IMG/VR virus record: IMGVR_UViG_3300037484_000515
Coordinates: 1 to 48,429 of that record
Length of the DNA stretch: 48,429 bases
DNA from: a virus
Lineage: Duplodnaviria; Caudoviricetes
Strand: one strand, 5' to 3'
Shown here one piece after another: positions 1,979-48,316 of the stretch (its first letter is position 1; every line of letters starts with the position of its first letter). Made by a program: the position numbers and the translations under genes. Below the pieces are notes generated by a model. That model was not told the origin of the DNA, ran no database searches, and saw only the letters and a list, made by a program, of their open reading frames with translations.

Positions 1979-1981
1979 AAT

Positions 1982-20127: not shown

Positions 20128-20187
20128 TTCGTTGACTCCGACGACTTGATCCCCGCCGCCTATCCTCGCCGAAGGGGGATCAAATGT

Positions 20188-31101: not shown

Positions 31102-31350
31102 CTATTTCTCCTTAATTTCGCGGGTATTTCCGGCCTTATGAGCCGTTAAGCCCAGTGCGGCAAAGATCGCGGCGATGGCTTCCGGCGTTGTCATTTGACC
31201 CGCTGACCAAGCCAGCAAGATCGTGATGATCGCTCCGGTATACATGAGATAGGTTTTCTTCCCCGCCAGAAACTTGCGAATGTCTGTAAGCATTTTCCCT
31301 CCGAAGAGTTGAAGTCCAATGGTCAGTATTTTGATCTTGAGCTTATTCAT
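31102..31350 (-). CDS. Holin-like two-TM protein
   Basis: LAGKKTY then two hydrophobic helices; directly upstream of the endolysin. Confidence 0.65.
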   Translation of the reverse strand: MNKLKIKILTIGLQLFGGKMLTDIRKFLAGKKTYLMYTGAIITILLAWSAGQMTTPEAIAAIFAALGLTAHKAGNTREIKEK

Positions 31351-31466
31351 ATTTTGCTTTTGCCGTTAGTATGTCGTCTGATTTTTCCGCCCTGCTTGCG
31401 AGGCCGCTTATACTGTCTCCGCATCTTTGTTTTATGTTTGATGGGTTCCACGATCCGACCGTTCAT
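31347..31466 (-). CDS. 39-aa cationic peptide in the lysis cassette
   Basis: MNGRIVEPIKHKTKMRRQYKRPRKQGGKIRRHTNGKSKI; fills the gap exactly, with an ATGA overlap. Confidence 0.55.
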   Translation of the reverse strand: MNGRIVEPIKHKTKMRRQYKRPRKQGGKIRRHTNGKSKI

Positions 31467-31467
31467 T

Positions 31468-31743
31468 TCAGCAATCGCCCCTCTTCCATCCTGGCTGAAA
31501 GCACGGAGCCTTGTCGAAAATCGTCTCGATCTTTTTTCCTTGTTCGTCTAATTTCTGATTTGTCAACCGCACTTCAATCGTCAGGCTATCCACGCTGGTC
31601 GCCAGACCGTTTTTGTCTTCTTTGGTATCCGTCAAATGCTGGATCTGTTTCTCCGTCCAGTTACGGTTTTTCCAGTAGGTTCCTATGGCCGTGCCAAAGG
31701 CTCCTAAGATACCGATGGCGGTAGCGACTTGTGTTAATTCCAT
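31468..31743 (-). CDS. Single-TM coiled-coil lysis-cassette protein (holin/antiholin-like)
   Basis: AAGGAG RBS; N-terminal TM followed by a coiled coil. Confidence 0.6.
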   Translation of the reverse strand: MELTQVATAIGILGAFGTAIGTYWKNRNWTEKQIQHLTDTKEDKNGLATSVDSLTIEVRLTNQKLDEQGKKIETIFDKAPCFQPGWKRGDC

Positions 31744-31753: not shown

Positions 31754-33007
31754 TTAGTAGGCGCCGCGATCCCGCACCACATCATAAATTACCGAATCAC
31801 CATCTACCCAGAAAGTCGTATCCGTCCCGCTGAGAATTGTGCCCAATACATTGCGGACAAAGGGAACATCACCAGGGTCATCAACGATTTTCAGGGTTCC
31901 ATTTAGGCCAAAGAGCGCAGTAGAAGAACCGTTATCCAGCCAACCTCTAACCCCGCCCGTATAGTCAATAGCGGGGATGGTCATAACACTCGCCCCGCCT
32001 GTTGCCGAACTTACGTAATGCCCGCCCATAATGAGACTCTTTGCGCTGGACGTAGATTTGTAGGTCGGAGCCGTCGCGCTTTCTTTGTTCATCATGAAGT
32101 TTTCGACGAGGGATACGCTTCCTGATCCGGCCATCTGCACAGTGCCGTTAGTGGCATCGTTATTCTCCATTGCCGACCAAAGAAAGGAGCCGCCGCCCGA
32201 CGTAGTAAGATTAGTGAAAGTCGGCCCATCTCCGGCATTATAGAAAATACCGTGATAGCCCCCGCCAAATCCAGAATTGGCGGCTACGGCGATACAAGTG
32301 CTGTCGCTGTAAATGCGCGAATAGCGAGTATGGGCGAATGCGCCATCTACGACTTTCAATCCGTTCTGCGCCGTCGCACCGGCTGAAAGAGGATATTGCC
32401 AGACGGGTTCTACGAAGAGTGGATAACCCCATTGGCAATCCACAAACCATGCCGAGTCCGCCGAAGAACCCGTTGTGCCCCCCGCATACATCCCGCCATA
32501 CGTGCCGATCTCAAACTGATTCCCCTCGAAGTAGGTTACGTTATCGCCGATGTTAAATGCGTTGGCCTTGATCCGCGAATTGCTGATGGAGTAATTGACG
32601 GTTCCGGCTCGCATCCAGCTTCCCGTTCCGGCACAGCTAATGGTGATATTTTCGATGTGGAACCCCCGTGAAGTCCCGCCCAAAATAAAGATCGTATCCG
32701 ACGCATTGAAGATCACGGAGCCCAGCGGCCCCATGCCCTCAATAAAGATAGCCGTGCCGACCGTCAGATTGCTGTCAGAATAAGTCCCAGGCCAAACATA
32801 GAGCACCCCACCGTCGCCCAAAGACGTTATGGCCGACTGCATAGCTGGGAATTCACCGCCCTTGCCTACAAAGACGACATTATCCGGCTGTTCTATGGCC
32901 TGCGACCCATAAGCACCAAGAATCTGCCCCTGTCCTGGGGGCGGCTGACAAAGCAGGATGCAGATCGCGCAGAACAACAGGCAAAGAATTACAATGAAAG
33001 TTCTCAT
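31754..33007 (-). CDS. Signal-peptide-bearing beta-helix (pectin-lyase-like) protein, possible spike
   Basis: Leader MRTFIVILCLLFCAICILLC; VGKGGEFPAMQSAI...VWPGTY beta-helix start. Confidence 0.7.
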   Translation of the reverse strand: MRTFIVILCLLFCAICILLCQPPPGQGQILGAYGSQAIEQPDNVVFVGKGGEFPAMQSAITSLGDGGVLYVWPGTYSDSNLTVGTAIFIEGMGPLGSVIFNASDTIFILGGTSRGFHIENITISCAGTGSWMRAGTVNYSISNSRIKANAFNIGDNVTYFEGNQFEIGTYGGMYAGGTTGSSADSAWFVDCQWGYPLFVEPVWQYPLSAGATAQNGLKVVDGAFAHTRYSRIYSDSTCIAVAANSGFGGGYHGIFYNAGDGPTFTNLTTSGGGSFLWSAMENNDATNGTVQMAGSGSVSLVENFMMNKESATAPTYKSTSSAKSLIMGGHYVSSATGGASVMTIPAIDYTGGVRGWLDNGSSTALFGLNGTLKIVDDPGDVPFVRNVLGTILSGTDTTFWVDGDSVIYDVVRDRGAY

Positions 33008-33522
33008 TATCGCCTCCACAGTTCAAGTTTAATCCGGTTGCTGTCGTCTGCGGTCGTGCAGTCGTTGGCCGTCTGCTGAATCATAAAATCCAGACCATGC
33101 GGAGGCCAGCCGTTGAAGTCCAGATTGCTGTTATAATGTGCGCTGTCCACCCAAGTAATCGCATTCGTCCAATTCACCGCCGCCGCGCTCAAGCCGTTGT
33201 CAATCGGAAGAGGTGTCCAGGTGATCCCGCCCCCCGCCGAAGACGTGAACGTGTCCGCCACCGCCCCGCCGAAATTCTTGCGGAACCAGAACTCAATGCT
33301 GTCGTGCGTGGCATCCTCATCCAGATCGTCCAGCATCAGCCGCATCACATACAGCCCCAGACCCTGATAATAGCCCAGCGGGATCTTCAACGTGTCCGTC
33401 TGCGTGCTGTCAATCGTAACCGAATCCGACCAGACTTTGTAATAGGCATCGCTCATCCCCGCAGGCTGGCCCCGCGCTACGACGGCCATAAATAAGGCCA
33501 GAATCGCAATGAATCTTTTCAT
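33007..33522 (-). CDS. Signal-peptide-bearing acidic beta-rich protein
   Basis: MKRFIAILALFMAVVARG|Q leader. Confidence 0.75.
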   Translation of the reverse strand: MKRFIAILALFMAVVARGQPAGMSDAYYKVWSDSVTIDSTQTDTLKIPLGYYQGLGLYVMRLMLDDLDEDATHDSIEFWFRKNFGGAVADTFTSSAGGGITWTPLPIDNGLSAAAVNWTNAITWVDSAHYNSNLDFNGWPPHGLDFMIQQTANDCTTADDSNRIKLELWRR

Positions 33523-36275
33523 CTTTCGCCCCCAACTTCTATTTGTTCTTCTTGTTCTGCCTGTTTTGCCAATAACTGAAGTTCGGTGATAATCGCCGCC
33601 CGCTTTGCACCCTCACCGATGGGAATCTTCATACCTTGAGTCAAGAGTTTTACGGCTCGCGGGCTGCGAAGCATCTTGGCAACTACCGTAGATCCGACTT
33701 CGAGTCCGCCAATAATCCAAAGCGCAGAAGGATGATAAATCGCCGCATAACTCGCCGCACCTACCGAAAGTCCCGTATGGACTCGCACAATATTCTTTTT
33801 TACCCCGCCAGCACTTAGAGCTTTATCTGCAACCGAAAAGAATTCTTCCAGATTGCGTGTATAGGTTGGATCTTGAAATAGTTTCGCTTTCGTTCTTGCT
33901 CCAAGTTTCCCAATCGCCGTAAAATCATTGCTTTCAATGGCTTTTTGCAAATAGGCACTTCCAAGTTCTCTGCGAGATTCTGGTGATTCTTTAAGCACCG
34001 CTTCAAGTTGCTTGATGCTTTTATCGTTTGGTTTAAGTAATTGATCGAACACAACGGCAGGTTCATCTCTGAGCTTACTAAGCGTCTCCGCCGCCTCAGC
34101 CTTTGCTTTCCATGCCTTGCGCCCCGATTCCAGTGCCGTCAGTGCTACTGGATCAGCCTTATTGACGGCTGTATTGATTCTTGTTTCCAAATCCCCAACC
34201 GCCTTCGCTGCCGTTCCTTGCTCGATGTTTCGCATGTAGGGAGAATCAGATTTTCTGACAATCCGTTTTAGTCCGCTTAAAAATTCTTCCGCTTCGATTG
34301 CCGAGACACCAAGCTTGGAATTAGCCTCCATGAATCTTTGAATTGTCCTGAAATCACCAGCCGCAATCCCACTTGGATCTATGTTATGTATAGCTTGCAT
34401 TTCATCCCAAATTGGCCGAATAGCAGCTTGAGTTTTTGCAACATCAACGCTAACGGGAGTTTTATCCATGCGTGTTTTCCAGTCATTATAAGCCGCTGTC
34501 CCCTCTTGGTAGAGTTGCTTGATCCGACCTTCAACTCCAGCCCTAACCGACTCACCCGCCGCCAATGGAGTTTGTGCCGTTCCGCCTGTTTGTTGCGCCA
34601 ATTCCTGCGCCCGTCGCGCTATTGCGCCCGCAGTTCTGGCCTGTGCGCCCGTTGCTATGGCACTGCCGCCTGGTGAAGATTCTGCCGCCGCCTGAAGTCC
34701 CGCCACAAGCGGATGTTCACCCGAAGCCGTAGTCGCACTTAACGGCACACCAGATTTCATTACATTTTGCGCTTCGGCATATCCTGGCCTTTTTGAACCT
34801 ATACTCGGAGCGACCGGAACCTTTTTAGGCAATCTACCTATTGCCAATGCTTCGAGATTCCCTACAATCAATCCAACAATATCCCCCATCCCCTCTTTGA
34901 CCAGTCCCCTTTTTATCTTATTGATACCATCGGCCAAAATAGGCTCTCCCGCATCCCATTGAAAATCAATCAATTCATTTAATTTTTCTTGTGGAGACTT
35001 TGTGGTATCAGAAAGAATCCTTTGCTCTTCCGAAATCGCAGCCAATGGCGCGGTAATCAAATTTTCCGGATTCGCAAGGCGATTGAAATTACCCCAAAAC
35101 GATTCAGCATAAGACCCACCCACGCCAAAAGACTCCTGCTTAATGCCTTGCAGTTGTTTCAAATAAGGGTTAGGGGCATTTGCGCCTCCCTGAAGTTCTA
35201 TGGATTGGCGAATTAAGTCATCATCAGATTGTTGCATTGGGTCAAGGGTATCGGGATCGAAGCCGAACCTGGTTAATGCGCTTCTGGCCTCATCGCTCAA
35301 GAAATGAAAGTCCTTTGGCATGGCCATCCCCGTTTCCCATTTATTTTGATGCGCCCTTAGCCGCGTAAACATTAGCTTAAACATTTCATCAATGCCAGAC
35401 AAAATCTGATTTGGGGAATCGGCATTATCAAACATTTTGCGCCACTCTTTCATCTCTTGATCTGTGGCAGCCGCACCGGTTCCCTTATAAACCGAGGCCA
35501 ATTCTCCTGGGGCTGCGGTCGCATCCGCCTGAAAGCGTTTTAATGCGTTAGCAACATCGGGATTCGTAGCGGGCACTTCCTTCGCCGCTAAGTTTTTAAT
35601 ACGATTCCATAATTTGAAGCCACTATTATCTAAGTCCTTTATATTATCATAAATACTTGACAAATGTCCCACTAAAGTATTCATGGCTCGCGTGATGTCC
35701 GCGTCTTTCTTGGCCTCGAAGGATTCGCGTAATGTTTTTCGCGCACCATATTTGGTGTAATCCCACGCGGGGTTTATCTTTAATATTTTTGCCACTACTC
35801 TCTGCCAATATGGTTTTGACATGGCAAAACCAGACGGAAGCGGGATCTTATATACTGCCATACTCCCAGCTACCGCCTCTTCGCCCTCTGGATCAGTATA
35901 ATCGCCCATCCCCGTAGAAGACAATTTTAACCCTGCAAGTTTAGTATCGAGTTCACCCTTAGATTTTGCCGATGCAACATCCGCATCTATCTCCATTTGC
36001 TTAAGGAATTTCTCGTTACCAAAATCCCTATTGGACTTCGCCGCTTCGCCTGTCTGTTTCAAGATTTCCAATGCCAGGCCGTTATCCGCCTGTATCCGCG
36101 CGACATTGCCCGCTTCCTGCATCCGCACCGCCGATTGCATCTTGGCCTCGGCCTCGCCGATCAGCAGGCGCAGTTTATAGGCGATCAAGGCATCATTACC
36201 CTTATCGCGCTCCCGCGCATTTTCGCGCATCCCCTCGCGGAATGCCTGAGCCGCCGCCAGAATATCTAAGGCCAT
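33519..36275 (-). CDS. Large internal virion/DNA ejection protein
   Basis: 918 aa, Ala/Lys-rich and helical, downstream of the nozzle gene, with a C-terminal hydrophobic segment. Confidence 0.65.
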   Translation of the reverse strand: MALDILAAAQAFREGMRENARERDKGNDALIAYKLRLLIGEAEAKMQSAVRMQEAGNVARIQADNGLALEILKQTGEAAKSNRDFGNEKFLKQMEIDADVASAKSKGELDTKLAGLKLSSTGMGDYTDPEGEEAVAGSMAVYKIPLPSGFAMSKPYWQRVVAKILKINPAWDYTKYGARKTLRESFEAKKDADITRAMNTLVGHLSSIYDNIKDLDNSGFKLWNRIKNLAAKEVPATNPDVANALKRFQADATAAPGELASVYKGTGAAATDQEMKEWRKMFDNADSPNQILSGIDEMFKLMFTRLRAHQNKWETGMAMPKDFHFLSDEARSALTRFGFDPDTLDPMQQSDDDLIRQSIELQGGANAPNPYLKQLQGIKQESFGVGGSYAESFWGNFNRLANPENLITAPLAAISEEQRILSDTTKSPQEKLNELIDFQWDAGEPILADGINKIKRGLVKEGMGDIVGLIVGNLEALAIGRLPKKVPVAPSIGSKRPGYAEAQNVMKSGVPLSATTASGEHPLVAGLQAAAESSPGGSAIATGAQARTAGAIARRAQELAQQTGGTAQTPLAAGESVRAGVEGRIKQLYQEGTAAYNDWKTRMDKTPVSVDVAKTQAAIRPIWDEMQAIHNIDPSGIAAGDFRTIQRFMEANSKLGVSAIEAEEFLSGLKRIVRKSDSPYMRNIEQGTAAKAVGDLETRINTAVNKADPVALTALESGRKAWKAKAEAAETLSKLRDEPAVVFDQLLKPNDKSIKQLEAVLKESPESRRELGSAYLQKAIESNDFTAIGKLGARTKAKLFQDPTYTRNLEEFFSVADKALSAGGVKKNIVRVHTGLSVGAASYAAIYHPSALWIIGGLEVGSTVVAKMLRSPRAVKLLTQGMKIPIGEGAKRAAIITELQLLAKQAEQEEQIEVGGER

Positions 36276-36276
36276 A

Positions 36277-36924
36277 TTACGCCACCATCATTAAAAAGGG
36301 TAAAAGTTGCCACAATTCTTCTTCCATCGGAATCGCCGTCGAAGGACTATCATATTGACGCTGCCCTAACCACATCAGTAACTGCTCCATAGGATCTTGC
36401 TTTTGCGGTTGCAGCATTTTAAATACATCCGCCCCTACACCGCCGGCAAGTTGACCCCAACCTGCCTCCCTTTGCGCTTTCAGAGTGGCGATATTACTGC
36501 CCACGCCCGTCAGATAGCCCAGCGCGTTAGATTTCACCTCCTCGTCCAGGCGCATGACCTGTTCGTTCAACGCACTTACTTGCTCGGCCACAACGCGATT
36601 GACGCTGCCCAGCATTTCATTGGCCGCCGTGCTGTCTGCCAGGCCACGCGAGGACACCGCCGCCGCCCCGCGTGTCTGCATAGCACCGGCCTCACGGCTA
36701 ATCCGCGCTAAGCCGCGATTGATGATGTCTTGTTCGACATCGCCGGATAGACCACCCTCCGCCCGCCCTTTCAGGAGATTATAAAGATCCTGCATTTCGT
36801 TTGATTTGCCGCCAGGCAGCTTTACGCCCGCAGCAGCCGCTCCCACTGCAAGAGGATAAAGCATGGGATTAGTTATGATGGGCGTTTTCGTGAAAATATC
36901 GCCTAAATTATCCCAGAAACTCAT
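36277..36924 (-). CDS. Small internal virion/ejection protein
   Basis: Gly/Ala/Gln-rich, SRGLADST motif, podovirus synteny. Confidence 0.65.
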   Translation of the reverse strand: MSFWDNLGDIFTKTPIITNPMLYPLAVGAAAAGVKLPGGKSNEMQDLYNLLKGRAEGGLSGDVEQDIINRGLARISREAGAMQTRGAAAVSSRGLADSTAANEMLGSVNRVVAEQVSALNEQVMRLDEEVKSNALGYLTGVGSNIATLKAQREAGWGQLAGGVGADVFKMLQPQKQDPMEQLLMWLGQRQYDSPSTAIPMEEELWQLLPFLMMVA

Positions 36925-36925
36925 A

Positions 36926-37123
36926 TTATTTCCCTCCCCTTGAAGATAGAGTAACCGCCCCGCCCAGCGCTTCTATGGCCGCGATGATCGCTGCGAATGA
37001 CTCATCCATATAGGTTTCATTTTCAGTAAAACGCCTATCCGTCACTGCCGCTACGCGCCGATGCTCTATGTCTCGCGGCCCTGGGATTCGCGTCAAATAC
37101 TCAATTTTGGGAGTTACTGCCAT
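36926..37123 (-). CDS. Small tail-associated protein
   Basis: Position after the nozzle gene; GGAGGAG RBS. Confidence 0.5.
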   Translation of the reverse strand: MAVTPKIEYLTRIPGPRDIEHRRVAAVTDRRFTENETYMDESFAAIIAAIEALGGAVTLSSRGGK

Positions 37124-40100
37124 TGCTCCTCCATCCCCTCAAGTCGTCTGAACGATAAATCCGAATCTAAATTATGCGAGAGAATCCAGGTAAATTCGCG
37201 GCCCATGAGATCTACCATCTTTTCTTTTCCGCTTTCCGTTGTGGCCATTGTAATCGTCCGGCTCCCGCCCTTCTCGTTCTTGATCGTAATGGTGTAGCTA
37301 TCGGCATTCTGGCTGTCGGGATATTCATAAATAGCGCGAATCGAATGGAGCACTCTATTGCCAAATCTTCCCGTAGGAATCACTTGTTCCCAATACATCG
37401 CTACGGGTTGATCTGCGAACTTGAATGAATCTGGATCAAGCTGATAGAAAGTGTAGTTATTATGATAGATGATAGAATCATCGGATAACCGTGCCCAACC
37501 GCGCACAGCGAGAATCGTTCCGTCTGCATCCCCACGCATCATGACCGCACCGTTCTTGTCAATCTCGACGTTCTGGGCGATCAACGTAGCGGCTATCGGG
37601 CCGGAGCGATACCACCAATCGTATTTCGAGGCGGCATTGGGAGATTCGGCTATCGCCCAGACGTGAGCATGATCGGGATTTGCCGCTGCGGGTCGCCACC
37701 CGTTCAATGTGCCGAAATGGTCATAGGCCGTATCGGGGTAATAGCCGTCTTCTCCGTCCGGTTGAGGCGAGGGCGCATTCCATGATTCACCCGTTCCCAT
37801 CAGGCGCGCCCTATGTTCTATGCGACCATTAATCTGGTGATAATAGAATGCGTCCCATTGCTTCGCTTCGTCTGTGCCCGTATAGGTCAAGGCGTATTGA
37901 TTGGCATTTTCGCCGATGCTACTTATACCCTGCGGATATTCCCAATCAGAAATCCCTTCGTCCGCAGACCAATATCGAAAGACGAGCTGATTGACACTAT
38001 TGACATCCAGAAATCCTACTTGACCTTCTTGGGCGCACATGCAGGCATTAGGCATATTAACATTAGCTAATTCTTGCCAATTATAAAATGCGGACAGCCA
38101 AAGTCCACGCATGAGTTTGCTACTGCTTAAACCCGTGGCCCAGTGCACAAAGGCATAACCTGGCGCGTTGGCGTCAAAGGCTACGCTGGGCGCTATCGTC
38201 GAAACCTGCGATCCGCCCGTGTCTTCGCGGCTATACGTAAAGAACCAAATCAAGCCGCCATTCTGTGAACAGCGTTGTTTGGTGTAAGCATGATCGCCCG
38301 TCGCCACATAACTGCGCCAGACGACGATAATATGATTGCTGTCGTTAGGATCAACGTCTATGTCGGGATAATACTGCGCATCGTCAACGCCGGTGAGGGT
38401 TTCCAGCGCATAACCTTCTCCGCCGCTATATTGCTGCCACTCCATCGTCGCTATGTTGAACTTGCCATAATAAACACGCTTGCTGGTATTATCAAGATTT
38501 TCCCACGTCGAAACCGCATGAATATAAGTTCCCCTGACAACGAAAGACATGGATTGACTTTTAGGCCCGCCCCCTGCTAACTCCCAATCCTTTAGATGAA
38601 CAAACTCATTTGCCCCTGGCGTTAGATAATAGAATCCCCTTATAGGACTATATAAATCACCCCCAGGATTATCTACTCTTCCGACAATAACGGTTCCCGC
38701 TGGCAATGCGCCGACGGCTATGGGCAAAATGCCGAGCGTCTTTTGCGTCGTATAATTGCCGCCCACGCTACGCAGTCCTTCAGCATCCTCGTTATTTATT
38801 TTCATCCAGCGCGGATCATTGGTCGGAGCTATTATTTCTGCGGTGGGAATACTGAATAGCACTTTGTCATCGCGTAATATCGGCATAACCTGCGCCGCAT
38901 CCAAATCAATGTCGGGCATCGCCAAAATCGTTTCGAGTTTATCGCGTATATGGTCTAAAGGACGCGGCTTGCTATTGGGCTCCCAAACATAGAGAATAGA
39001 CCGATCCCCGCGTTTGCCGATGAAATAACTGACGCCATCTACTTCCGCATAAGCGTCTATCGAATTTACTCCGCTATCCCAGGGCTGCTCGGCCAACACT
39101 TCCACCGTGCCATCGCCTAAAAGCAGATATTTGAACAATCTGCGTTTTGTGCCGACTAATAAGAAATCATGGTGAGGCCGGATACCGACTAACTTTTCGT
39201 CGTAATCTGCGCTGATATTGATATAACGCGGTTGAAGATCAAATCCCGCGAGCGGATCATTTACGCGATGCGAATAGCGAATCGTGAACTGTCGCTTCTC
39301 ATCGTCATAATTCACGCCGGTTACCCACATGGTATCGGCAAATATCCGCGCTTGAGAATAGTTGCAATCTATGCGCGGCAATTCGTCTCGCGCTTTATTG
39401 GGATCAATCCAATTCGGCACGGCGGCGCTGGTGGGCTGATTTAGGTCTATGAAATCCAGAACAACGTTTGTTGCGCTCTGACGCCAGCGACTGTTAACTT
39501 GTAGGGTATAGTGTCTCTCATAGGTTAGACTTGGATTGGGCGTTGGAACCTTGACGTATATAAAAATCCATTCTATTCCTATTCCACCCGACGAGCTATA
39601 AATGTCTGATTCATAGTCCGCATCATTATCGTCAGTAAATTTAGCCGTCAAATCCTTATAGAAATCCACATCAATATTTTGCGACGGATGCACTAAATAG
39701 AAATATTTAAAGCGAGCATAGGTGTTACTTCCGATGGTCTCAAAGTTCAGGAAAATGGCATCCAAATTGATGACATTGGCATATCCATCCTGAATGTCAA
39801 AGCGGGCGATTTCTTGATAGGGCGGAAGAAGAGAAGGCGCTAATGCAGGCTCTCCGGCGGCTTGAATCCCCAAGTTTTGATGACTGCGATAGAGACGAAA
39901 ACCCGATAATCGCTTAGGAAACGCCGCACCATCTTCATAGTCTCTAATCGTTAAGCGTAATTTTGTGCCCCAGGTATAATAGGGATCTGCGCTGACGGTT
40001 TCACCGATAGTAAATGGATCAACTTTCAGGTCTGCAACTTGATGTCCGTCATATTCGGCCAAAATTGCATATTTAACATTGGCATTGGCATAGCCGAAAT

Positions 40101-40908
40101 TATTGCCCAAGTGCCAGGTGTGCGGCGTTCCGCCGGTTGGGCTATCTACAATCTCTAAGTCCGGTGTGTAGTCCGGCAAGCCCACGCCGCGCACCAGGTC
40201 GGCAAACTCATGCAAACACCAGCCATCTTGGGGATGCGCTGAATCGTATCTTTTGAAATAAGCATTGACTTCTTCTTCGCTGACAGGCGTCTTAGGCTGG
40301 CGATTGACATAACGCCATTGCAGCGGAAACGAATCGGACTTGTTGAACATAGGATGCAATTGTTCGCCGCCGTCATACATAAAATCGCCCAATGCCGCTC
40401 GCAATACCCCCTTATCCGACAGCCACTTCGCCGGTCGGTCATGGCAATCACTCACCCCAAATTCCTCGATAAAATTAGGGGCATTTGACATTTTATCATA
40501 GGGCGATAGATCGTCCCAGCCGCAGTAGAACGGCCCCTCGATAAACCATTGCCCGCCCGTTTCTAAGCTGCGCTCTAATTCATACCAATCGAATCCCTTA
40601 CTGCCTTTGACCTGAATGACCAACAACTCCGATGGCCGATTGATCTTGCTCTCCGCCGCCCAGACGCGATTGAAGGTCATCTGTCCGACAGAGAGTATTT
40701 GATCGCCGGATTCTAACCGTCCATTGAATAGTTGATTATTCGGATCAAATATCTTGCTGCCGGTGCTCTTACGCAAGCAGCCTGGGGATTTTGTCAAATC
40801 TACGTTCCGCGCTTCCCGTGCTATATTCGGGGATAAATCGCCTGCATCGGGATTCGTCGCCATTCCGCCGGAAAAATTCTTGATTGCAAATGTCGGCTTG
40901 AATTGCAT
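37114..40908 (-). CDS. Tail nozzle/tubular protein B-like, with inserted domains
   Basis: N-terminal NFSGGM...DL...NVDL...GCLRK...G, a beta-propeller-like body, and no signal peptide. Confidence 0.7.
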   Translation of the reverse strand: MQFKPTFAIKNFSGGMATNPDAGDLSPNIAREARNVDLTKSPGCLRKSTGSKIFDPNNQLFNGRLESGDQILSVGQMTFNRVWAAESKINRPSELLVIQVKGSKGFDWYELERSLETGGQWFIEGPFYCGWDDLSPYDKMSNAPNFIEEFGVSDCHDRPAKWLSDKGVLRAALGDFMYDGGEQLHPMFNKSDSFPLQWRYVNRQPKTPVSEEEVNAYFKRYDSAHPQDGWCLHEFADLVRGVGLPDYTPDLEIVDSPTGGTPHTWHLGNNFGYANANVKYAILAEYDGHQVADLKVDPFTIGETVSADPYYTWGTKLRLTIRDYEDGAAFPKRLSGFRLYRSHQNLGIQAAGEPALAPSLLPPYQEIARFDIQDGYANVINLDAIFLNFETIGSNTYARFKYFYLVHPSQNIDVDFYKDLTAKFTDDNDADYESDIYSSSGGIGIEWIFIYVKVPTPNPSLTYERHYTLQVNSRWRQSATNVVLDFIDLNQPTSAAVPNWIDPNKARDELPRIDCNYSQARIFADTMWVTGVNYDDEKRQFTIRYSHRVNDPLAGFDLQPRYINISADYDEKLVGIRPHHDFLLVGTKRRLFKYLLLGDGTVEVLAEQPWDSGVNSIDAYAEVDGVSYFIGKRGDRSILYVWEPNSKPRPLDHIRDKLETILAMPDIDLDAAQVMPILRDDKVLFSIPTAEIIAPTNDPRWMKINNEDAEGLRSVGGNYTTQKTLGILPIAVGALPAGTVIVGRVDNPGGDLYSPIRGFYYLTPGANEFVHLKDWELAGGGPKSQSMSFVVRGTYIHAVSTWENLDNTSKRVYYGKFNIATMEWQQYSGGEGYALETLTGVDDAQYYPDIDVDPNDSNHIIVVWRSYVATGDHAYTKQRCSQNGGLIWFFTYSREDTGGSQVSTIAPSVAFDANAPGYAFVHWATGLSSSKLMRGLWLSAFYNWQELANVNMPNACMCAQEGQVGFLDVNSVNQLVFRYWSADEGISDWEYPQGISSIGENANQYALTYTGTDEAKQWDAFYYHQINGRIEHRARLMGTGESWNAPSPQPDGEDGYYPDTAYDHFGTLNGWRPAAANPDHAHVWAIAESPNAASKYDWWYRSGPIAATLIAQNVEIDKNGAVMMRGDADGTILAVRGWARLSDDSIIYHNNYTFYQLDPDSFKFADQPVAMYWEQVIPTGRFGNRVLHSIRAIYEYPDSQNADSYTITIKNEKGGSRTITMATTESGKEKMVDLMGREFTWILSHNLDSDLSFRRLEGMEEQWQ

Positions 40909-40912
40909 GATT

Positions 40913-41821
40913 TTAGGGATCGGCTTCCAGAATAATATCCGTGTAGAAATCGGTTGTATCGGCGGCATCCGCTGCTTCGGGCGTGAACACTAATTTCACG
41001 GCATCAACAAAACCTGGGGTAAAGCTGAATGCCTTGAAGTCCGCCGCGCCCGACGCAATATTGACCGTGAGAGTATCAAGATAAGCACTTGTTACTACGC
41101 CCCGCGAAACTCCCTGAATATAGACCGTCAGCGAGTCGTCATCGTATTTACTGCCGTCGCCCACTGTGCACAAGTAGGCTCGATCCGGCATTTGATAGAC
41201 CCCAGGGCTGGTCTCAATGCGGAAATCTATGATGTCCGAAGTGGTATTGGCCGCGCCAATGGCCAATTTTGCGCTGCGAGTGCGCCAGATATTGTAGTGG
41301 GGAATGCGCTTGACGTAATTGCGGGGCGGGTCATACATGTTGCTGGACTCGTCGGCCAAATAAACGCCCACCCACTCCGTAGAATCCGCCGCTACTCCGT
41401 AGGGATAAGAAAAAACAAAATGGACATATTGACCGGCATAGGATTCCAGCCAGGGCATAGCGAACGAGTGGTTATTCTGTGAGCTTGATCCTATGCCGTT
41501 GAAATCCTGCCAGAGTTCGGAATGGATCAACACCCAACGATCCTGGTCTGGATCGGCGTTCTGTTCCGCCAAGTAGGTGTCAATTTGCAGCCAATAATGA
41601 GTCGTATTCGTGCCGACTTCATCAAGATCAAGGAAGAGGGTGGATCGGATCGGGCGGCGATTATCGGCGCTGGATTTGTAAAGCCAAATCTGATCGCTGG
41701 TGTCGGGCGTATTGGACACGATAGTGTCCCCCGCCTCGAAAACCGTGCGATATAATTGAGCTGCCGACCAATTTGCCGACATCAAGAGAATGGTTGTTAA
41801 GGCCAAAACAAGTCTTTTCAT
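40913..41821 (-). CDS. Signal-peptide-bearing acidic beta-rich protein
   Basis: GGAGGAGG RBS; MKRLVLALTTILLMSANWSAA|Q leader. Confidence 0.75.
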   Translation of the reverse strand: MKRLVLALTTILLMSANWSAAQLYRTVFEAGDTIVSNTPDTSDQIWLYKSSADNRRPIRSTLFLDLDEVGTNTTHYWLQIDTYLAEQNADPDQDRWVLIHSELWQDFNGIGSSSQNNHSFAMPWLESYAGQYVHFVFSYPYGVAADSTEWVGVYLADESSNMYDPPRNYVKRIPHYNIWRTRSAKLAIGAANTTSDIIDFRIETSPGVYQMPDRAYLCTVGDGSKYDDDSLTVYIQGVSRGVVTSAYLDTLTVNIASGAADFKAFSFTPGFVDAVKLVFTPEAADAADTTDFYTDIILEADP

Positions 41822-41889
41822 CTATCGTCCTCCTCCCCAGTCGGGGATTCTCACCGTGCCGATATGGGTCTCAAATTCGGTATTCGTTT

Positions 41890-43422
41890 TCATTCTTCAA
41901 CCACGATCACCTGCCCCACGCTCGCCGCCGCCGGTGGCGCTCCCCCCGTCTCAAACGTGAAGCTGAAGCGAGGGCGGTTGGCGGCGGTGGCATTCTCGGA
42001 TGAAGCGAAATCATTACTTGCAATGCCAGTCTGTAAGAGTAATCCACCCTCTTGCCCCGATGCTTGTCCATACCATTCTGTTGCCGTTGTCGTTGAAATC
42101 GCCCATGAATACCAAGTATTTGTAGTCGTAACATTTACTATTGATTCAGCAGTTAGTGCTCGATCTCCACCAGTGCCGTCTCCCGTATTATATGTTCTGG
42201 TGTCTGTTGCACTCATACAGCCCGCTGTTGTCCATTCGTTTGCATCACTCGCCCAATCATTCCAGGTTACATCGCCATCGTCGTTATCTGTGCCGTTTTC
42301 ATCACCTTTAACCCATTGATTTTTCCAGATTGCATAAACATTTGTATTGCCATCACTATAATTGCCGCTACATTTCAAAGAACATACACCAGTTATATTC
42401 GTAGCACCAACACCAAGAGTAGAACCTACACCAACTGGACGTATAACAGAATTATAATCATAAGCAGCTTCCGATACAGTAATAACCGTAAGAACTCCAT
42501 AATTTCTATCCCCAAATATCTGATTAAGCTGTGCATCATCAATACTCCCATTCCCTATCGAAACCTGATCGTTATGCCGGATCTTCGCGGAAGCATTCCC
42601 CGTCATAATCGCATCCATCCGGTTCACGTTCACCCGCTCGCGGAATTGCCCCGCCGCCCATCCCTGCATCACCGGAAACTCCACGCTGTCGGGCTGTCCG
42701 TCGTATTCCAACCATTGCCCGCCCATCTCCAGCGCGTAATGTTGCCATTGCTTGAGCGTCGTTCCGTGCTTCGTGCCCGTCGGGTTGGCGATATTCGTCA
42801 GCGTAATATCTACATCGGTCGCCACCGCGCACCCCGCCCATTCGGGATGCAGTTGGGCTTGCTCTACCGCCCATAGCGAAAACGCAGGCTCCATCGTGTA
42901 GCGGTGGATCACGTTGCCGTTCTGCTTGATGACTTCAAAGATCACGCCCGAATAGATCACCCACCGCAGAGTGTCGCCGGAAATCACCGGAGTCCCGAAC
43001 GTCGCCGGAGCGCTGAATCCCTCCACCACCGCGCCTGTCAGAGTATCCTCCAGCACAAACCCGTTGAGCTGGTAGATCATGGTGTAGGTCGTATCATCCC
43101 ACGTCACGGTGAACAGGGTGCGCCCCGCCCGATTCTGCTCGACTTTCAGCACGTCAGTATTGCACGTCCATTTCCGATTCGCGCCACTGCCCGACTGCAC
43201 CCACGTATTGCTGATCGGTTGCCAGACCCCGCCATTGGGATAATGCCAGATCTGCCCGCCGATAGAAAGCTGGTGCTGCGCTCGCCACTTCCCCCACGGC
43301 TGGAGCACACTATCAGAATTCACCACGGATTGATACCCGCTCGGAACCCACGCCGCTTTTGTAGGGGTTTGATTCATCAAACCCGCCGCCAGCACCAGAA
43401 CTATGTAAAGGAGTCGTTTCAT
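41890..43422 (-). CDS. Signal-peptide-bearing protein with a C-terminal DNRLRE-like domain
   Basis: MKRLLYIVLVLAAGLMNQTPTKA|A leader; DAQL...RNYG, VTWN...WTTAG, WYSW, FASSE...NRP. Confidence 0.75.
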   Translation of the reverse strand: MKRLLYIVLVLAAGLMNQTPTKAAWVPSGYQSVVNSDSVLQPWGKWRAQHQLSIGGQIWHYPNGGVWQPISNTWVQSGSGANRKWTCNTDVLKVEQNRAGRTLFTVTWDDTTYTMIYQLNGFVLEDTLTGAVVEGFSAPATFGTPVISGDTLRWVIYSGVIFEVIKQNGNVIHRYTMEPAFSLWAVEQAQLHPEWAGCAVATDVDITLTNIANPTGTKHGTTLKQWQHYALEMGGQWLEYDGQPDSVEFPVMQGWAAGQFRERVNVNRMDAIMTGNASAKIRHNDQVSIGNGSIDDAQLNQIFGDRNYGVLTVITVSEAAYDYNSVIRPVGVGSTLGVGATNITGVCSLKCSGNYSDGNTNVYAIWKNQWVKGDENGTDNDDGDVTWNDWASDANEWTTAGCMSATDTRTYNTGDGTGGDRALTAESIVNVTTTNTWYSWAISTTTATEWYGQASGQEGGLLLQTGIASNDFASSENATAANRPRFSFTFETGGAPPAAASVGQVIVVEE

Positions 43423-45782
43423 GGCGTTAAATTCCCATAAAACTGAATCAGCAACTGATCTGTGCTGTCCGCCGGAGTTACTATCCCGATCTTCGCGCCC
43501 GATGCTATCGTCCCATTGTCAATCGAAGTGAACCAATTCTGCCGCCGCGCCGTCCCTGTCTCCGTGCCTACCTGCATCGCTTCGATGACCGCCGCCGCCC
43601 CCGTCGTTAATGGCATCTCCACCAGCGTAAAATCGAAATCGTCTACACTCCCATCGGTTTCAACAAGAATCGAATCAATCGTATAGACTACCCCTGTCAG
43701 ATTCGCCCAGATATTCGACGTGTCCGCCACAAGATGCTTCGGGTTGACAATCGCCACGCTGAAATTCTTCTTGAGCGGAACCGCCGCAATCTGCTCCGGC
43801 AGCGACAGCGTGATCGTCCCCGCCCCATTCGTTACGGTCAATTCGTTGGCCGTCCCCGTCATAGTCGCCAGCACCGGATCAGTCGTCCCATCCCCTACCG
43901 GAATCTGCCCATTCGTCGCCACGCCCAACGCCGTAATCGCATCCGTCCCTGATCCTACCAGCAACCCCCCATCCGTCAGCGTATTCGCCCCCGTTCCACC
44001 CTCATTCACCGCAAAGGGATATGCCGTATTGACAAGATTCTCCGCTATCGTGCCGTCAGCTATATCCGTCAGGGTTGCTTCCAGCGGTTGATAAGTCGCT
44101 CCTACCCACGTCCGATAGGCCACATCCGCGCTATCAGCTGGGTCTAAGAAATCCAGTCCACTCACCCAGTCTCGATAGGCCACTCCCGCCGAATCCGCCG
44201 GATCTAAAAAGTCGCTCACCACGAGGTCAACCGTGCCATCATCATCCTGATAGGTAACGGTGATTCCCGTCTCGGTATTCCCCGTGAACATCGCGCCGGA
44301 CAGATCTTGCGCCACCTCATCATCTATCTCCAGACTGTCCGTCGTAATGGCTATCCCCCCGCCGGATAAAACATTCGCCGTCACCGTAACCGCCCCATCA
44401 GCACCTCCGCCGCTCAGCCCATCCCCCGCCGTTACCGCCGAAATATCCCCCGTCTCCGTAATGGTGATATTGTCCGGCACCTGAGCGTCCGTGACCGAGC
44501 CTTGCAATTCACTCAGATCCAGCACCGCCTCAAGCTCAGCCTCCACGCCGGTGGCATTGAGTTCTTCTGCCGAAACCGCATCTGCCGTCAGGTCTGCGGC
44601 TGTAATCGTCGAATCCTGAATCTCCCCGGCCGTTCCTCCATCCACCGCCCCGGCAGCGATCTGAGCATCAGCCACCGTTCCACTTAACTCCGAGAAGTCA
44701 TCCTGGGCATTGTCCTGGGTGTCCACATAAGTCCGGGTGGCCGCATCCGCGCTATCTGCGGGGTCTAAATAATCGCCCACTTGCGTTTGATGCTGTTCGA
44801 TATATTGATCCCACTGAACGTCGGTGGCATTGGTCGTATCCAGCGTGATGTCATTGGGCACCTGAGCATCGCTCGCTGCTCCGCCCAGCTCGCTAATATT
44901 ATCATGTGCCGCATCCGTCTCTAATCCCGGCACTTCCGCCTCGGTCGCCATCGTCGAAACAATCTCGTCCGCCGCCCAGGGATTTGCCGTGTTGATCCAA
45001 TTTCCCGCAATCGTCTCGGCTTGCACCATGAACGCCACCGCGCCTGAATCCGGCTTGGCGGAAATCCGCGCCGACATCACAGTAGTATCCGACACCGTTA
45101 CAATCGTGGCTACCGTATCCGGCCATGTCAGCGCCGAAGAAGTATCCTGCTCCGCGTCAAGATCTGTCTTGGTCGCATCCCAAGAAGTTGTATCACTATC
45201 AAGTTGATAGTCGCCAATCGTTATCGTGGTCGCGCCAGATACTTCATAAGGGCTTTTCCACGCCACCAGCCGCATCGTCCAGATGTTCGTGTCGGGGAAT
45301 ACCCCGAAATAGGGAAATGCCCCATTCGCCCCGCTGTCTTCGTTGGCAACAGACAATCTGCCCATCGTTGGAAAATCTAAGCTGCTACTGGTAAGTGATG
45401 GGCTGAACACGGCATAGGTTACTTTGTTCGCAACGGCCTTGACGTAAAGAGTATCGTAGTATATGCTGGAGGTATCGCCCTGAGAATATCCCAATAGCAG
45501 CACGATCAAGCTGTCATCATCAGCCTTGTCGCACGTAACCTCCAGCATGGCATGATCCGCCAAAAAAGGTGTGCCCGCCTTGTCATATACCAAAAAATTG
45601 AATGGTTCAGACAAGGCTCGCGCTTTATTTGCCCAACTTCCGGTAAACGTCGAATTGATCCCGCCTGTTGAGCAAACACTCGCGTCATAAAATAGAGCGG
45701 CATTTCCAATACTGATTTGCTGCGCGTTAGCTATGATCGCCATACCAGCGAGGCATAACCACGCCAGCTTCCATCGTGCCAC
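43419..45782 (-). CDS. Signal-peptide-bearing phage fibre protein
   Basis: GTG start at 45782 after an AGGTGA RBS gives MARWKLAWLCLAGMAIIANA|Q. Fibre motifs: DAATRTYVD, VTAGDGLSGG, GNTETGITVTYQD, VNEGGTGA, TNGAGTITLSLP. Confidence 0.78.
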   Translation of the reverse strand: MARWKLAWLCLAGMAIIANAQQISIGNAALFYDASVCSTGGINSTFTGSWANKARALSEPFNFLVYDKAGTPFLADHAMLEVTCDKADDDSLIVLLLGYSQGDTSSIYYDTLYVKAVANKVTYAVFSPSLTSSSLDFPTMGRLSVANEDSGANGAFPYFGVFPDTNIWTMRLVAWKSPYEVSGATTITIGDYQLDSDTTSWDATKTDLDAEQDTSSALTWPDTVATIVTVSDTTVMSARISAKPDSGAVAFMVQAETIAGNWINTANPWAADEIVSTMATEAEVPGLETDAAHDNISELGGAASDAQVPNDITLDTTNATDVQWDQYIEQHQTQVGDYLDPADSADAATRTYVDTQDNAQDDFSELSGTVADAQIAAGAVDGGTAGEIQDSTITAADLTADAVSAEELNATGVEAELEAVLDLSELQGSVTDAQVPDNITITETGDISAVTAGDGLSGGGADGAVTVTANVLSGGGIAITTDSLEIDDEVAQDLSGAMFTGNTETGITVTYQDDDGTVDLVVSDFLDPADSAGVAYRDWVSGLDFLDPADSADVAYRTWVGATYQPLEATLTDIADGTIAENLVNTAYPFAVNEGGTGANTLTDGGLLVGSGTDAITALGVATNGQIPVGDGTTDPVLATMTGTANELTVTNGAGTITLSLPEQIAAVPLKKNFSVAIVNPKHLVADTSNIWANLTGVVYTIDSILVETDGSVDDFDFTLVEMPLTTGAAAVIEAMQVGTETGTARRQNWFTSIDNGTIASGAKIGIVTPADSTDQLLIQFYGNLTP

Positions 45783-46491
45783 GAAATCTCTCACCTTTGA
45801 TAAGTTGCGATCTGAATTTATCTTTGAGTCTATTTGTCTCTAAAATCGTCTCTTGCCAACGCCGCAGCGTAGCCCTCACGTCCCCCTTGTCGCGCAAGAA
45901 CTTCCAGGCCGCTCGTTCGGCGATGCAATCATGATAATCTTCAGGGAACTCAGGATAGAGCGAATCCCAATCGTCTATCGTGGGCTGCGGCGGACGCCGG
46001 AAATAAGAACACAGGAAGTTCGTCGAATCAGCTTCCGAAAGATAGGGATAGAACGAGACATAAGTGATATTGGCGTTGGTGTCCGTATCCCATTCACTCC
46101 ATTCGGCAAAGGCTATCGGCGATCCCGTGGTGTCAATCGCGCCCGAATTGTTCGCATCGTCTATCGCGTCTTTATTCCACTTCCCCAAACGCGGTGGACT
46201 ATTGGGCTTGTAGTAAATCCGGCGCACGCTGAAAATCTTATGCGTCGTCGGCAGTTCGGTCGCGCCGATAGCCGTTTCCAGATTGTGCTTGTTCAGCGCC
46301 AGCGTCGTGGCCGTCAACGTCAAGAGCGTGGGCTTACGATACGTGCATCCGGTCTCGCGGCAGATATTCCAATACTCATCCGCCAGCCGATTGCAGATTT
46401 CCGTATCATCTTCGGATTGCAAGCCTTCAGCATAACCCGCCTTCTGCCCGATCTTTTGCAGATAGCGGTCTTTTAGGCTTTCAAAAGTCAT
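45727..46491 (-). CDS. Head-tail adaptor / tubular protein A-like
   Basis: MTFESLK..., TGSPIAF, FYPY, YFRRP, EFPEDYHDCIAERAAW pattern; synteny. Confidence 0.7.
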   Translation of the reverse strand: MTFESLKDRYLQKIGQKAGYAEGLQSEDDTEICNRLADEYWNICRETGCTYRKPTLLTLTATTLALNKHNLETAIGATELPTTHKIFSVRRIYYKPNSPPRLGKWNKDAIDDANNSGAIDTTGSPIAFAEWSEWDTDTNANITYVSFYPYLSEADSTNFLCSYFRRPPQPTIDDWDSLYPEFPEDYHDCIAERAAWKFLRDKGDVRATLRRWQETILETNRLKDKFRSQLIKGERFRGTMEAGVVMPRWYGDHS

Positions 46492-46527
46492 AGGTATAGG
46501 CTCCCCGCTCGCACGAGGAGCCTCTCC

Positions 46528-46836
46528 TTATTCCTCTTTCGCGGGTCGCCCGCGCTTCGGCTTTTCCAAATCGTCCAAGCGGGATTCGATTCGCCCTACT
46601 CGCGCCAAGAGTTCTTCATAATCCATCACCTTGTCGCCAGGCGTTCCGGCTTCAAGATGAATTTTGAAAACGGTGGGGAATGCCGACATTCTCTTTACGG
46701 CATTATTATCCACCAGGCAAGTCCATCCGTTTTCCGGCTTGAAAACATAGTTCTCAAAGCGTTTCTGAGGCTTAACTTCCCGCCCCTCGGCAATATACTC
46801 TACCAGGGTATAGGCTTGCACAATTGTTTCTGCCAT
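46528..46836 (-). CDS. Small post-capsid protein with a KRGRP tail
   Basis: C-terminal KPKRGRPAKEE; position. Confidence 0.6.
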   Translation of the reverse strand: MAETIVQAYTLVEYIAEGREVKPQKRFENYVFKPENGWTCLVDNNAVKRMSAFPTVFKIHLEAGTPGDKVMDYEELLARVGRIESRLDDLEKPKRGRPAKEE

Positions 46837-46888
46837 ATCAACTCCAGATTAAGTGAAGGGCGGGATGTAGTTCACCCCGCCCGTTGAT

Positions 46889-47488
46889 TTACTGCGTAAT
46901 CCAGCCCGTATAGCGCTGAACGACATCCACTCCGACACCACAGGTATCATTCGCCGAAGCGCCACCCGTCGAGAAATCAAGCTCGATCATCAAGTAGTTC
47001 GCGGCAGAAGCCGTAACTAATTGGGCGGCACTGAACGCATAGATACCATGCGCATCATAAGTTGTCGTCGCCAAATCATCATCCGTCGGGCCGAGAGCAA
47101 TAGTATCTTCATCGGCGTTCAAATGAAGTGGTCGCCAACTCATCGCGGCTGCCGCTAAATTGGTGGAATCCGTAGCGTTTGAAACCCACAACCTGACCAT
47201 GACGGTATCTGTAACGGTCAGAGTTATAGTGCCTCCCGCCCTGACTTCCACATTCAGCGCAATCGCATCGGGAAAGGGCTGTCCAAACCCAAACAGATTC
47301 ATAGCGCACGGTTTTCCAAATTCTGTTGCGTCATTGCCCGCGATAGAATCTATATCTATCGCATTGTAGCGCACGTAGTATTTGGTTTTCGGCCCAACAA
47401 ACCCATTGGGTGTATCGTCTGGTGTAACCGCTGCCCATAGTGGAAGAGCGAGAACGGCTACCAGCAGAATGCTAAGTAGTTTCTTCAT
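46889..47488 (-). CDS. Signal-peptide-bearing protein in the capsid-decoration position
   Basis: AAGGAGGAG RBS right after the capsid stop; MKKLLSILLVAVLALPLWA|A leader. Confidence 0.78.
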   Translation of the reverse strand: MKKLLSILLVAVLALPLWAAVTPDDTPNGFVGPKTKYYVRYNAIDIDSIAGNDATEFGKPCAMNLFGFGQPFPDAIALNVEVRAGGTITLTVTDTVMVRLWVSNATDSTNLAAAAMSWRPLHLNADEDTIALGPTDDDLATTTYDAHGIYAFSAAQLVTASAANYLMIELDFSTGGASANDTCGVGVDVVQRYTGWITQ

Positions 47489-47499: not shown

Positions 47500-47925
47500 T
47501 TATGAGTTGGTATAGTGGATTTGACCAGCGGTTTTGACAGCAATCACGGCATTGTCAATGCTGTTAAACCGCGCCTTTTGGAAGCCGAGCAGAGCTTTCA
47601 CGCCCACGCCGATATACTCATCATACCAGCCTCCGGCTTGCGCCCATTCTGGCCCGTAGCAATGAGCATAGCATCCGGCTTCCGCGCCCAAAAGCAGACC
47701 CGTGCAGCCATTTATCGTTCCGCCTACGCCCCACGTAGTCGCTGTCGGCATTCCGTAGTATTCATAGATCAACACGCCATACAACTTGCCGACAGGCATC
47801 GGCAATTGACCCGCCAGATTGCCCGTGCCGGTAAAGAGCGGATTGTCATTGCCTCGCGCATTGGCGTATTTCTGGTAATCTTCCCATGCGCTGCCCGCCG
47901 CGTATTTCAGATCGCCGATGGCATA
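47500..47925 (-). CDS. Major capsid protein, exon 2 (spliced product about 383 aa)
   Basis: Capsid C-terminal motifs NPLFTG, GKLYGVLIYE, LLLGAEA, GFQKARFN. Joins in frame to exon 1 as LHP|YAIGDLK. Confidence 0.88.
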   Translation of the reverse strand, partial: YAIGDLKYAAGSAWEDYQKYANARGNDNPLFTGTGNLAGQLPMPVGKLYGVLIYEYYGMPTATTWGVGGTINGCTGLLLGAEAGCYAHCYGPEWAQAGGWYDEYIGVGVKALLGFQKARFNSIDNAVIAVKTAGQIHYTNS

Positions 47926-48316
47926 CACTTATGTTCAACAGAGTTCGCTATGCTCTGCCCGTCCAGATTCCTGAACCGCTTCATGTTGCCATGAAGGTCG
48001 GACTATATCATCATCCCGTTTGGACGGGATGCTTCGCGCTTCGGATCGCTTGATCCTACTCTCTTTCGAGATAGTCTCTGAACTTATAGGAATTTTGTGT
48101 GGGCAAATACCGTAGTAACGCTTACCCCAATTGCAATTCATACAGAGTGTCTGAAAATCATTGGGGAAGTTGTTCTTAACCAACCAAGAATAAAAGATGT
48201 GTCCGCCGCGCTTTCCGGTCTTCAGTTCGCGGCGGTGTTTAGCACCATCATTTTCTATGTGGTCAATGGTCAAGAACAGTTCATTGGATTCACCGCAACA
48301 GGCACACTTACGACCA
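47926..48316 (-). ncRNA. Group I intron, 3' part (P7, P7.1, P7.2, P8, P9, omega-G); total intron 765 nt; IA-like
   Basis: R element GUUCAGAGACUA (about 48072-48083), S element GAUGAUAUAGUCC (48000-48012), P9 CUUCAUG-GCAA-CAUGAAG, terminal G at 47926. The 3' exon UAUG pairs with IGS CAUA (P10). Confidence 0.92.
47935..48316 (-). CDS. Intron-encoded HNH-type homing endonuclease, C-terminal part (about 219-223 aa in total)
   Basis: YGRKCACCG...LTIDHI...QTLCMNCNWGK: Zn-binding beta-beta-alpha-metal nuclease pattern. Confidence 0.85.

Follow-up and report, generated by a model that had tools for sequence, protein, structure and literature searches.

Six genes in the virion morphogenesis module of a phage contig (IMG/VR virus record IMGVR_UViG_3300037484_000515) encode proteins, here named SP1 to SP6, that begin with Sec-type signal peptides (leaders), and these leaders are conserved and occur beyond chance. 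The window that was analysed is the whole stretch of 48,429 nucleotides (nt), a circular phage contig with a terminal repeat of 113 bp. Judged from sequence, SP1 to SP6 are very probably exported and cleaved and, if exported, they are likely to be glycosylated by a host system of the Bacteroidota/FCB type. Their attachment to the phage particle appears moderately favoured, and we regard the full chain, in which outer virion parts would be exported, glycosylated by the host and docked at lysis, as evenly balanced. The six genes are as follows, with lengths in amino acids (aa) and a slash at the predicted cleavage site.

46889-47488, minus strand: SP1, 199 aa, N-terminus MKKLLSILLVAVLALPLWA/A; candidate capsid cement or decoration protein
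43419-45782, minus strand: SP2, 787 aa, GTG start, N-terminus VARWKLAWLCLAGMAIIANA/Q; candidate fibre, with leader, conserved N-domain, variable acidic T/D-rich middle and conserved C-domain
41890-43422, minus strand: SP3, 510 aa, leader and two domains, N-terminus MKRLLYIVLVLAAGLMNQTPTKA/A
40913-41821, minus strand: SP4, 302 aa, leader and two domains, N-terminus MKRLVLALTTILLMSANWSAA/Q
33007-33522, minus strand: SP5, 171 aa, leader and small domain, N-terminus MKRFIAILALFMAVVARG/Q
31754-33007, minus strand: SP6, 417 aa, leader or signal anchor, N-terminus MRTFIVILCLLFCAICILLCQPPPGQG/Q

The initial annotation of this DNA had placed six Sec-type leaders at these coordinates, and all six open reading frames (ORFs) were present there on the minus strand. 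A basic n-region, a hydrophobic h-region and small residues at -3 and -1 were found in 6/6 proteins using our own heuristic, the thresholds of which were chosen after SP1 to SP6 had been viewed. The heuristic passed 6 of 17 morphogenesis genes versus 2 of 57 other genes, the latter being a polytopic membrane protein and the gene at 19433-19831; as a null, 20 of 9255 internal windows passed. Further, five of the six starts were well placed, with either a Shine-Dalgarno word or an overlap with the upstream stop. SP1, initially described as lying directly after the capsid gene with a strong ribosome-binding site, indeed begins 11 nt past the capsid stop with AGGAGG at 6-7 nt. SP4 has AGGAGG at 6-7 nt and SP6 has GGAGG at 5 nt, and the starts of SP3 and SP5 each overlap the preceding stop by 4 nt. 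The start of SP2 is the least secure.

It had also been proposed to look for the leaders in homologs. SP1 has two close homologs, and its alignment comprised 10 rows, namely the window and nine homologs (26-66% identical); P0016, a 1385-aa repeat protein (E 2.3e-4; one of nine rows of the profile search), was dropped from it as a probable chance match. The leader was kept in 9/9 aligned SP1 homologs (judged by eye), 2/2 SP4 homologs, 1/1 SP2 homolog and 1/1 SP3 homolog. In the two closest SP1 homologs the leader was 26-32% identical versus ~70% for the mature part, and the mature start A/QLY was invariant in 3/3 SP4 rows. A metagenome contig, L017, holds homologs of SP1, SP2 and SP3 that all bear leaders; its SP2 homolog is 45% identical with a full leader, and the first 53 aa of its SP3 homolog are present with the leader kept. 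The gene order of L017 is radical SAM, terminase, portal, scaffold, capsid, SP1 homolog, small gene, adaptor, SP2 homolog and the start of the SP3 homolog. An SP1-type gene therefore directly follows the capsid gene in both the window and L017, the capsid of which is 47% identical to an intact homolog, P0005. Disulphides as a reason for export were rejected for SP1 because there was no conserved cysteine column in the 10 rows.

Relatives were otherwise scarce. Homologs of SP5 were sought by hidden Markov model (HMM) libraries and pairwise comparisons only, and none was found. For SP6, neither phage records nor PDB sequences yielded a match; tblastn of SP2, SP3 and SP6 against phage records gave none, and PDB sequence searches with the window proteins returned nothing significant. 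Searches of viral contigs detected no relatives, whether the query was the capsid by itself, SP1 by itself or an SP1 alignment, and the SP1 alignments had no match in metagenome or genome contigs. The Atlas clusters nearest to SP1 were viral hypothetical proteins (0.84-0.85, under the tool's bar). The capsid alignment led to 15 distant viral-contig loci at 24-30% identity, in which no capsid-adjacent gene of at least 150 aa passed the leader test, apart from one doubtful call at locus L014. Because these distant loci mostly have no leader-bearing neighbours, the leader trait is not general to the capsid family.

The SP proteins also share a sequence motif. In the available part of PMC12871550, the O-glycosylation motif of Bacteroidota is D-S/T-A/L/V/I/M/T on noncytoplasmic proteins, it is enriched mainly in Bacteroidota, and transfer of the glycan occurs after export, likely in the periplasm. 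We counted D[ST][AILVMT] in mature proteins, as one of seven patterns tested, and took the expectation from within-protein shuffles. The six mature SP proteins held 37 motifs versus 15.1 expected (P=0.0005, ~2.5x), and each protein alone showed an excess (P 0.002-0.035), with 13 motifs in SP2, 5 each in SP3 and SP4, 5 versus 1.1 expected in SP5 and 5 versus 1.5 in SP6. Ten leaderless core ORFs held 13 versus 12.2 expected; the capsid has 0, and a 1264-aa probable nozzle has 4 versus 4.0. A further 14 other cytoplasmic ORFs held 8 versus 6.4, and four membrane or lipoprotein-like ORFs held 9 versus 1.4. Leaderless controls elsewhere were at similar levels to expectation, with 19 versus 22.0 in tail regions (11 proteins, 5 other loci) and 10 versus 9.1 in eight outer proteins of Ralstonia phage GP4. 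The patterns [ST]D, E[ST] and N[ST] were not enriched in SP1 to SP6 in the shuffle test, and the residues behind D-S/T were mostly T, L, V, S, I and A.

Individual sites were conserved as well. The D-S/T sites of SP1 at 47, 94, 128 and 181 persist down to 26% identity. Four of the eight invariant columns of SP1 are D, followed by S/T in 10, 10, 9 and 10 of 10 rows with S and T interchanging, and mean conservation of D was 0.85 before S/T versus 0.33 elsewhere, in rows that are related and not independent. In SP4, the aspartates of D-S/T were invariant in 7/7 cases versus 8/22 for other D. The excess of these putative sites is an independent periplasm-linked signal that was seen only in proteins bearing a leader or a membrane anchor. 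Leader conservation, together with the excess and conservation of the motif, makes the initially proposed export of the SP proteins a well-supported reading. As in the available part of PMC12871550, the motif was enriched in predicted noncytoplasmic proteins and no commoner than by chance in cytoplasmic ones, and the residues after D-S/T agree. The putative substrates here, in contrast, are phage late proteins, and that part of PMC12871550 makes no mention of phages. What the window adds is the conservation of individual motif sites within a capsid-adjacent, predicted jelly-roll family. The motif, the domain kinship of SP2 and SP4 described below and the intron in the capsid gene were absent from the initial annotation.

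The genes for the core of the particle, which the initial annotation had held to be leaderless, carried no leader by either reading of their N-termini or the heuristic. SP1 to SP6 are interspersed among the genes for the adaptor, the probable nozzle and the probable ejection proteins, all within a single co-oriented run that shows stop/start overlaps. The core genes and other assigned genes are listed here.

375..1100, minus strand: 5' exon of the major capsid gene, reaching across the circular junction; no leader
47500..47925, minus strand: 3' exon of the major capsid gene, N4-gp56/phrog_334 type; no leader
1154..5807, minus strand: block of probable scaffold (by position), portal and large terminase; all without leader
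2245-4077, minus strand: portal (PHROG match, E 4.5e-12); no leader
4068-5807, minus strand: large terminase (PHROG match, E 2.7e-15); no leader
46528..46836, minus strand: 102-aa protein of unassigned function; no leader
45727..46491, minus strand: head-tail adaptor (PF24175 SU10_adaptor, E 8.4e-9); no leader
37114..40908, minus strand: 1264-aa protein, probable tail nozzle by position; no leader
33519..36924, minus strand: 215-aa and 918-aa proteins, probable ejection proteins by position; no leader
30697..31743, minus strand: probable lysis cassette of two small membrane proteins and an endolysin-like gene (weak PHROG matches, E 0.009-0.02)
17543-18463, plus strand: tyrosine recombinase

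Library matches bore out the initial labels of the capsid (phrog_334, E 2.5e-24 and 2.4e-11), portal and adaptor. The nozzle and ejection labels are given by position: the 1264-aa protein had no match in the Pfam, PHROG or PDB-sequence libraries, and the 215-aa and 918-aa proteins had no significant library match. In L017, a 111-aa ORF fills the position of the 102-aa gene. The capsids of the nearest named phages (Bcep22, GP4 group) are ~25% identical to that of the window.

AlphaFold2 (AF2) predicted a beta-sandwich for SP1, with a predicted local distance difference test score (pLDDT) of 56 from 4 rows and of 70 from 10 rows, the latter with a predicted template modelling score (pTM) of 0.69. 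Fold searches with both models returned single jelly rolls (best Z 8.1-8.8), and the matches included viral capsid proteins, PNGase F, BcsB, and GOLD and Eph domains. A 135-aa chain from the capsid of phage 7-7-1, 9hz8_G, matched at Z 7.3 (root-mean-square deviation [rmsd] 3.7, 116 aligned), and the Pam1 cement protein 7eel_H matched the weaker model only, at Z 6.8 (rmsd 5.3, 130 aligned; rank 31). The modelled fold and the gene position of SP1 fit a cement protein, without proving a cement role. The N-domain of SP2 is paralogous to the C-domain of SP4 (hhalign 96%, E 1.4e-9) and the N-domain of SP4 is weakly like SP1 (41%, E 3e-4); this kinship suggests that the exported proteins may share docking modules. 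No paralogy of SP3 or SP5 with the other SP proteins was detected. The Atlas model of SP2 was poor (pTM 0.21).

The jelly-roll cements of Pam1 (7eel_H) and phage GP4 (AXG67696) resemble SP1 in gene position, directly behind the gene for a capsid from the same broad family, and in being single jelly rolls of similar size, as predicted for SP1. In GP4, the gene of this "virion associated protein" directly follows the capsid gene; unlike SP1, the protein has no leader and no motif. SP1 showed no sequence similarity to the cement proteins. We take epsilon15 gp10 and BPP-1 Bbp16 to be further jelly-roll cement or decoration proteins.

Leader-bearing late proteins also occur in the Cellulophaga phage phi10:1 (NC_021802), in which gp091-gp095 of the late module have Sec-type N-termini (by eye) and gp091-094 are annotated from tandem mass spectrometry (MS/MS) as structural, tail fibre or pectate lyase. 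According to this annotation, proteins with leaders can turn up in preparations of tailed phages, in which co-purification is possible. The phi10:1 records make no remark on leaders. That phage differs in having a long-tailed phage gene set, with leaders in one fibre block and none after the capsid among the genes inspected, and it gave no sequence match to SP2, SP3 or SP6. Its core proteins held 6 motifs versus 12.4 expected. In the lysis region of phi10:1, gp099 (L027, 27921-28643) has 4 motifs versus 0.5, and the leader-bearing fibre proteins of this phage avoid the motif. The phage at L014 (15780-20763), a distant member of this capsid family, has two leader-bearing genes of 1444 and 127 aa in its tail region, and they show no motif excess (8 versus 7.5 expected and 0 versus 0.2, respectively).

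Coat proteins of filamentous phages use signal peptides, and these phages are assembled at the membrane without lysis. Bdellovibrio MAT fibres likewise have signal peptides, according to the available part of PMC10769870. MATs are cellular adhesins, however, and neither they nor filamentous phages have an HK97-type head with portal and terminase. Glycan-bearing tailed-phage particles have been described: the mycobacteriophages Che8 and Rita, as cited in the available part of PMC11256854, have virions glycosylated by phage-encoded glycosyltransferases on the major capsid proteins. In the window, unlike in Che8 and Rita, the proteins proposed to bear the glycan are exported accessory proteins, and the capsid carries 0 motifs. 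In a literature search over titles and the beginnings of abstracts, with most subscription journals and supplements outside its range, no description of Sec export of tailed-phage virion parts was found among the matches listed. Term searches found neither "signal peptide" nor "glycosyl" in the crAss001 structure paper (PMC10172136), and "signal" was absent from the HFTV1 preprint (10.1101/2024.12.09.627619) and PMC12014285. Virion proteomics supplements may already contain relevant data.

We propose that the late operon would yield two classes of proteins, leaderless and leader-bearing. The leaderless proteins would build head and tail in the cytoplasm. The leader-bearing proteins (capsid decoration, fibre and small attachment modules) would be exported by the host Sec system and cleaved, would receive host O-glycans at their D-S/T motifs in the periplasm, and would be kept there until holin and endolysin act. 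Lysis would then mix the compartments, presumably at that time allowing the exported proteins to bind the particles built in the cytoplasm. Such a detour probably serves a modification that is available only past the inner membrane. Indirect support for the decoration role comes from the position of SP1 after the capsid gene in the window and L017, its predicted jelly roll and the MS/MS annotation of phi10:1. More tentatively, and with slightly less confidence than in the chain itself, the whole outer layer (cement, fibre and attachment modules) may be exported, dressed with host O-glycan and self-assembled on the bare particle during lysis; each subunit would then carry host-type sugar at several conserved sites, giving the virion a sugar coat.

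Several observations weigh against placing exported, glycosylated SP proteins on the particle. Their putative location there is predicted from gene order and a modelled fold, and DNA context was available for 1/9 SP1 homologs (L017). The leaderless 1264-aa protein may be big enough to carry receptor binding itself. The fold check proposed initially did yield a predicted jelly roll for SP1, and the match was generic with no cement fold standing out: the best Z of the better model (8.1) belonged to non-viral proteins, and cement-type chains (Z 6.8-7.3) scored no better than many unrelated folds. The initial labels "fibre motifs", "DNRLRE-like" and "beta-helix" found no significant match in Pfam, NCBIfam, PHROG or PDB sequences; for the SP2 fibre and the SP6 beta-helix there was also none in the HMM searches or phage records, and for SP3 there was no DNRLRE/CBM96 match in Pfam, NCBIfam or PHROG up to E 5-10. 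The C-domain of SP3, in our estimation, resembles DNRLRE/CBM96-type modules and SP6 is presumably beta-helix-like, with no library match behind either label. The motif statistics have exceptions too. The adaptor held 3 motifs versus 1.0 expected (P=0.07), D-x-S/T and N-x-S/T were mildly raised in SP1 to SP6 (45 versus 34.8, P=0.03; 31 versus 20.7, P=0.013), plain D[ST] was raised in the L017 core proteins (25 versus 17.0, P=0.026), and SP2 of L017 alone was not significant (12 versus 7.8, P=0.08). Some third residues (C, F, N) lie outside the common motif set.

The best-surviving alternative, which we nevertheless consider unlikely and which is close to the late surface effectors named in the initial annotation, is that SP1 to SP6 are exported, glycosylated effectors or adhesins of the host envelope (morons) of a temperate phage. 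In that case they would act in superinfection exclusion, adhesion or the timing of lysis, from the periplasm or the cell surface, and would never become part of the particle. The tyrosine recombinase at 17543-18463 suggests a temperate life style, and leaders and motifs would be expected of any secreted protein of such a host; the same motif excess occurs in two non-structural membrane or lipoprotein-like ORFs, and secreted bacterial proteins are among the top fold matches of SP1. Further, bacteria export fibre proteins with signal peptides, as the available part of PMC10769870 describes for the MATs of Bdellovibrio. Against this, the six genes hold fixed positions among capsid, adaptor and tail genes that are kept in L017, they are translationally coupled to core genes, a pattern scan of limited reach over 185,579 prokaryote genomes detected no SP1 relative, and phi10:1 offers an MS-annotated precedent.

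Still less probable is that the proteins are exported virion parts in which D-S/T has a structural role, as strand caps or metal sites, and bears no glycan, export serving folding or separation from early assembly. In the AF2 model, the D-S/T sites of SP1 fall on the ends of beta-strands or next to them, so that a structural role for them is possible. In the SP2 pair, aspartates of D-S/T were conserved in 11/17 cases versus 26/46 for others, with no bias. The five leader proteins of phi10:1 held 5 motifs versus 12.6 expected, and because they show no excess, glycosylation is not a general reason for leaders. Scans also identified no host: two of prokaryote genome contigs revealed no close prophage, and four distant loci only. 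These points favour a structural motif and count against glycosylated SP proteins. Beta-rich leaderless phage proteins, however, have no such excess, S and T swap freely behind an invariant D, and the excess is also found in unrelated membrane-anchored ORFs.

It is very improbable that the N-termini are uncleaved membrane anchors or assembly segments, with particles tethered to the inner membrane or the proteins cytoplasmic, since the h-regions are short, A-x-A type sites are followed by a conserved mature start (A/QLY, 3/3 SP4 rows) and the motif excess implies membrane passage. What speaks for anchors, and against uniform export, is that the leaders were called by a heuristic rather than by SignalP, that SP6 has a long hydrophobic segment and an atypical c-region, making its cleavage site uncertain, and that the start of SP2 is uncertain (GTG, with GGTG at 9 nt and a 56-nt overlap with the adaptor gene). 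The N-terminus of SP6 could be an uncleaved anchor, and the Atlas record of SP2 begins at Met14, a start that would remove the leader.

Other features of the window lie outside this question. The capsid gene is split by a ~765-nt insertion (374..1 and 48316..47926, minus strand) across the circular junction, which holds an HNH endonuclease ORF (PHROG, E 3e-5). The capsid halves rejoin in register with the intact homolog P0005 at ...HP/YAIGDLK..., after U and behind G, and we take the junctions to fit a group I intron; an Rfam scan of the window gave no family at the gathering threshold. In a comparison of the studied region with DNA contigs from sequencing runs (X1), 50 of 52 pieces matched at 99% or more, and no useful variants came from them. 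A gene for a 490-aa polytopic membrane protein and, next to it, a B12-binding radical SAM gene lie upstream of the terminase (7085-9738, minus strand), and a radical SAM gene precedes the terminase in L017 too (985-2277). The 490-aa protein had no library match and no tblastn match among phage records; we presume it to be GT-C glycosyltransferase-like, and the pair could modify a surface or virion glycan.

Outside the virion module, 19433-19831 (minus strand) encodes a 132-aa protein, either anchored in the membrane or exported, with 5 motifs versus 0.4 expected, and 11282-11635 (minus strand) encodes a lipoprotein-like 117-aa protein with 2 versus 0.2. A low-complexity ORF of GSGDG/GYGDG repeats (20146-20429, 72 aa, minus strand) adjoins a 121-aa gene, and an 87-aa ORF at 12273-12536 (minus strand) has repeated DRRSGGDRRR/RRSGKDRRK motifs. 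A plus-strand island of short ORFs at 13906-18463, with the tyrosine recombinase at its end, interrupts the otherwise minus-strand genome, and the GC skew switches sign there.

To our knowledge, tailed-phage particles are held to be completed in the cytoplasm. The novelty here is the export route, which was in no paper found, and it is conditional on attachment of the SP proteins to the virion. If the reading is true, such an outer layer, exported and glycosylated by the host, would extend tailed-phage assembly to a further compartment and to a step after lysis, and it would explain why some structural genes of phages are annotated as secreted or discarded as host contamination. The route can be tested in a cultured phage, since leader-bearing proteins of phi10:1 are already recorded in virions. 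Further, the surface chemistry of such a virion would depend on its last host.

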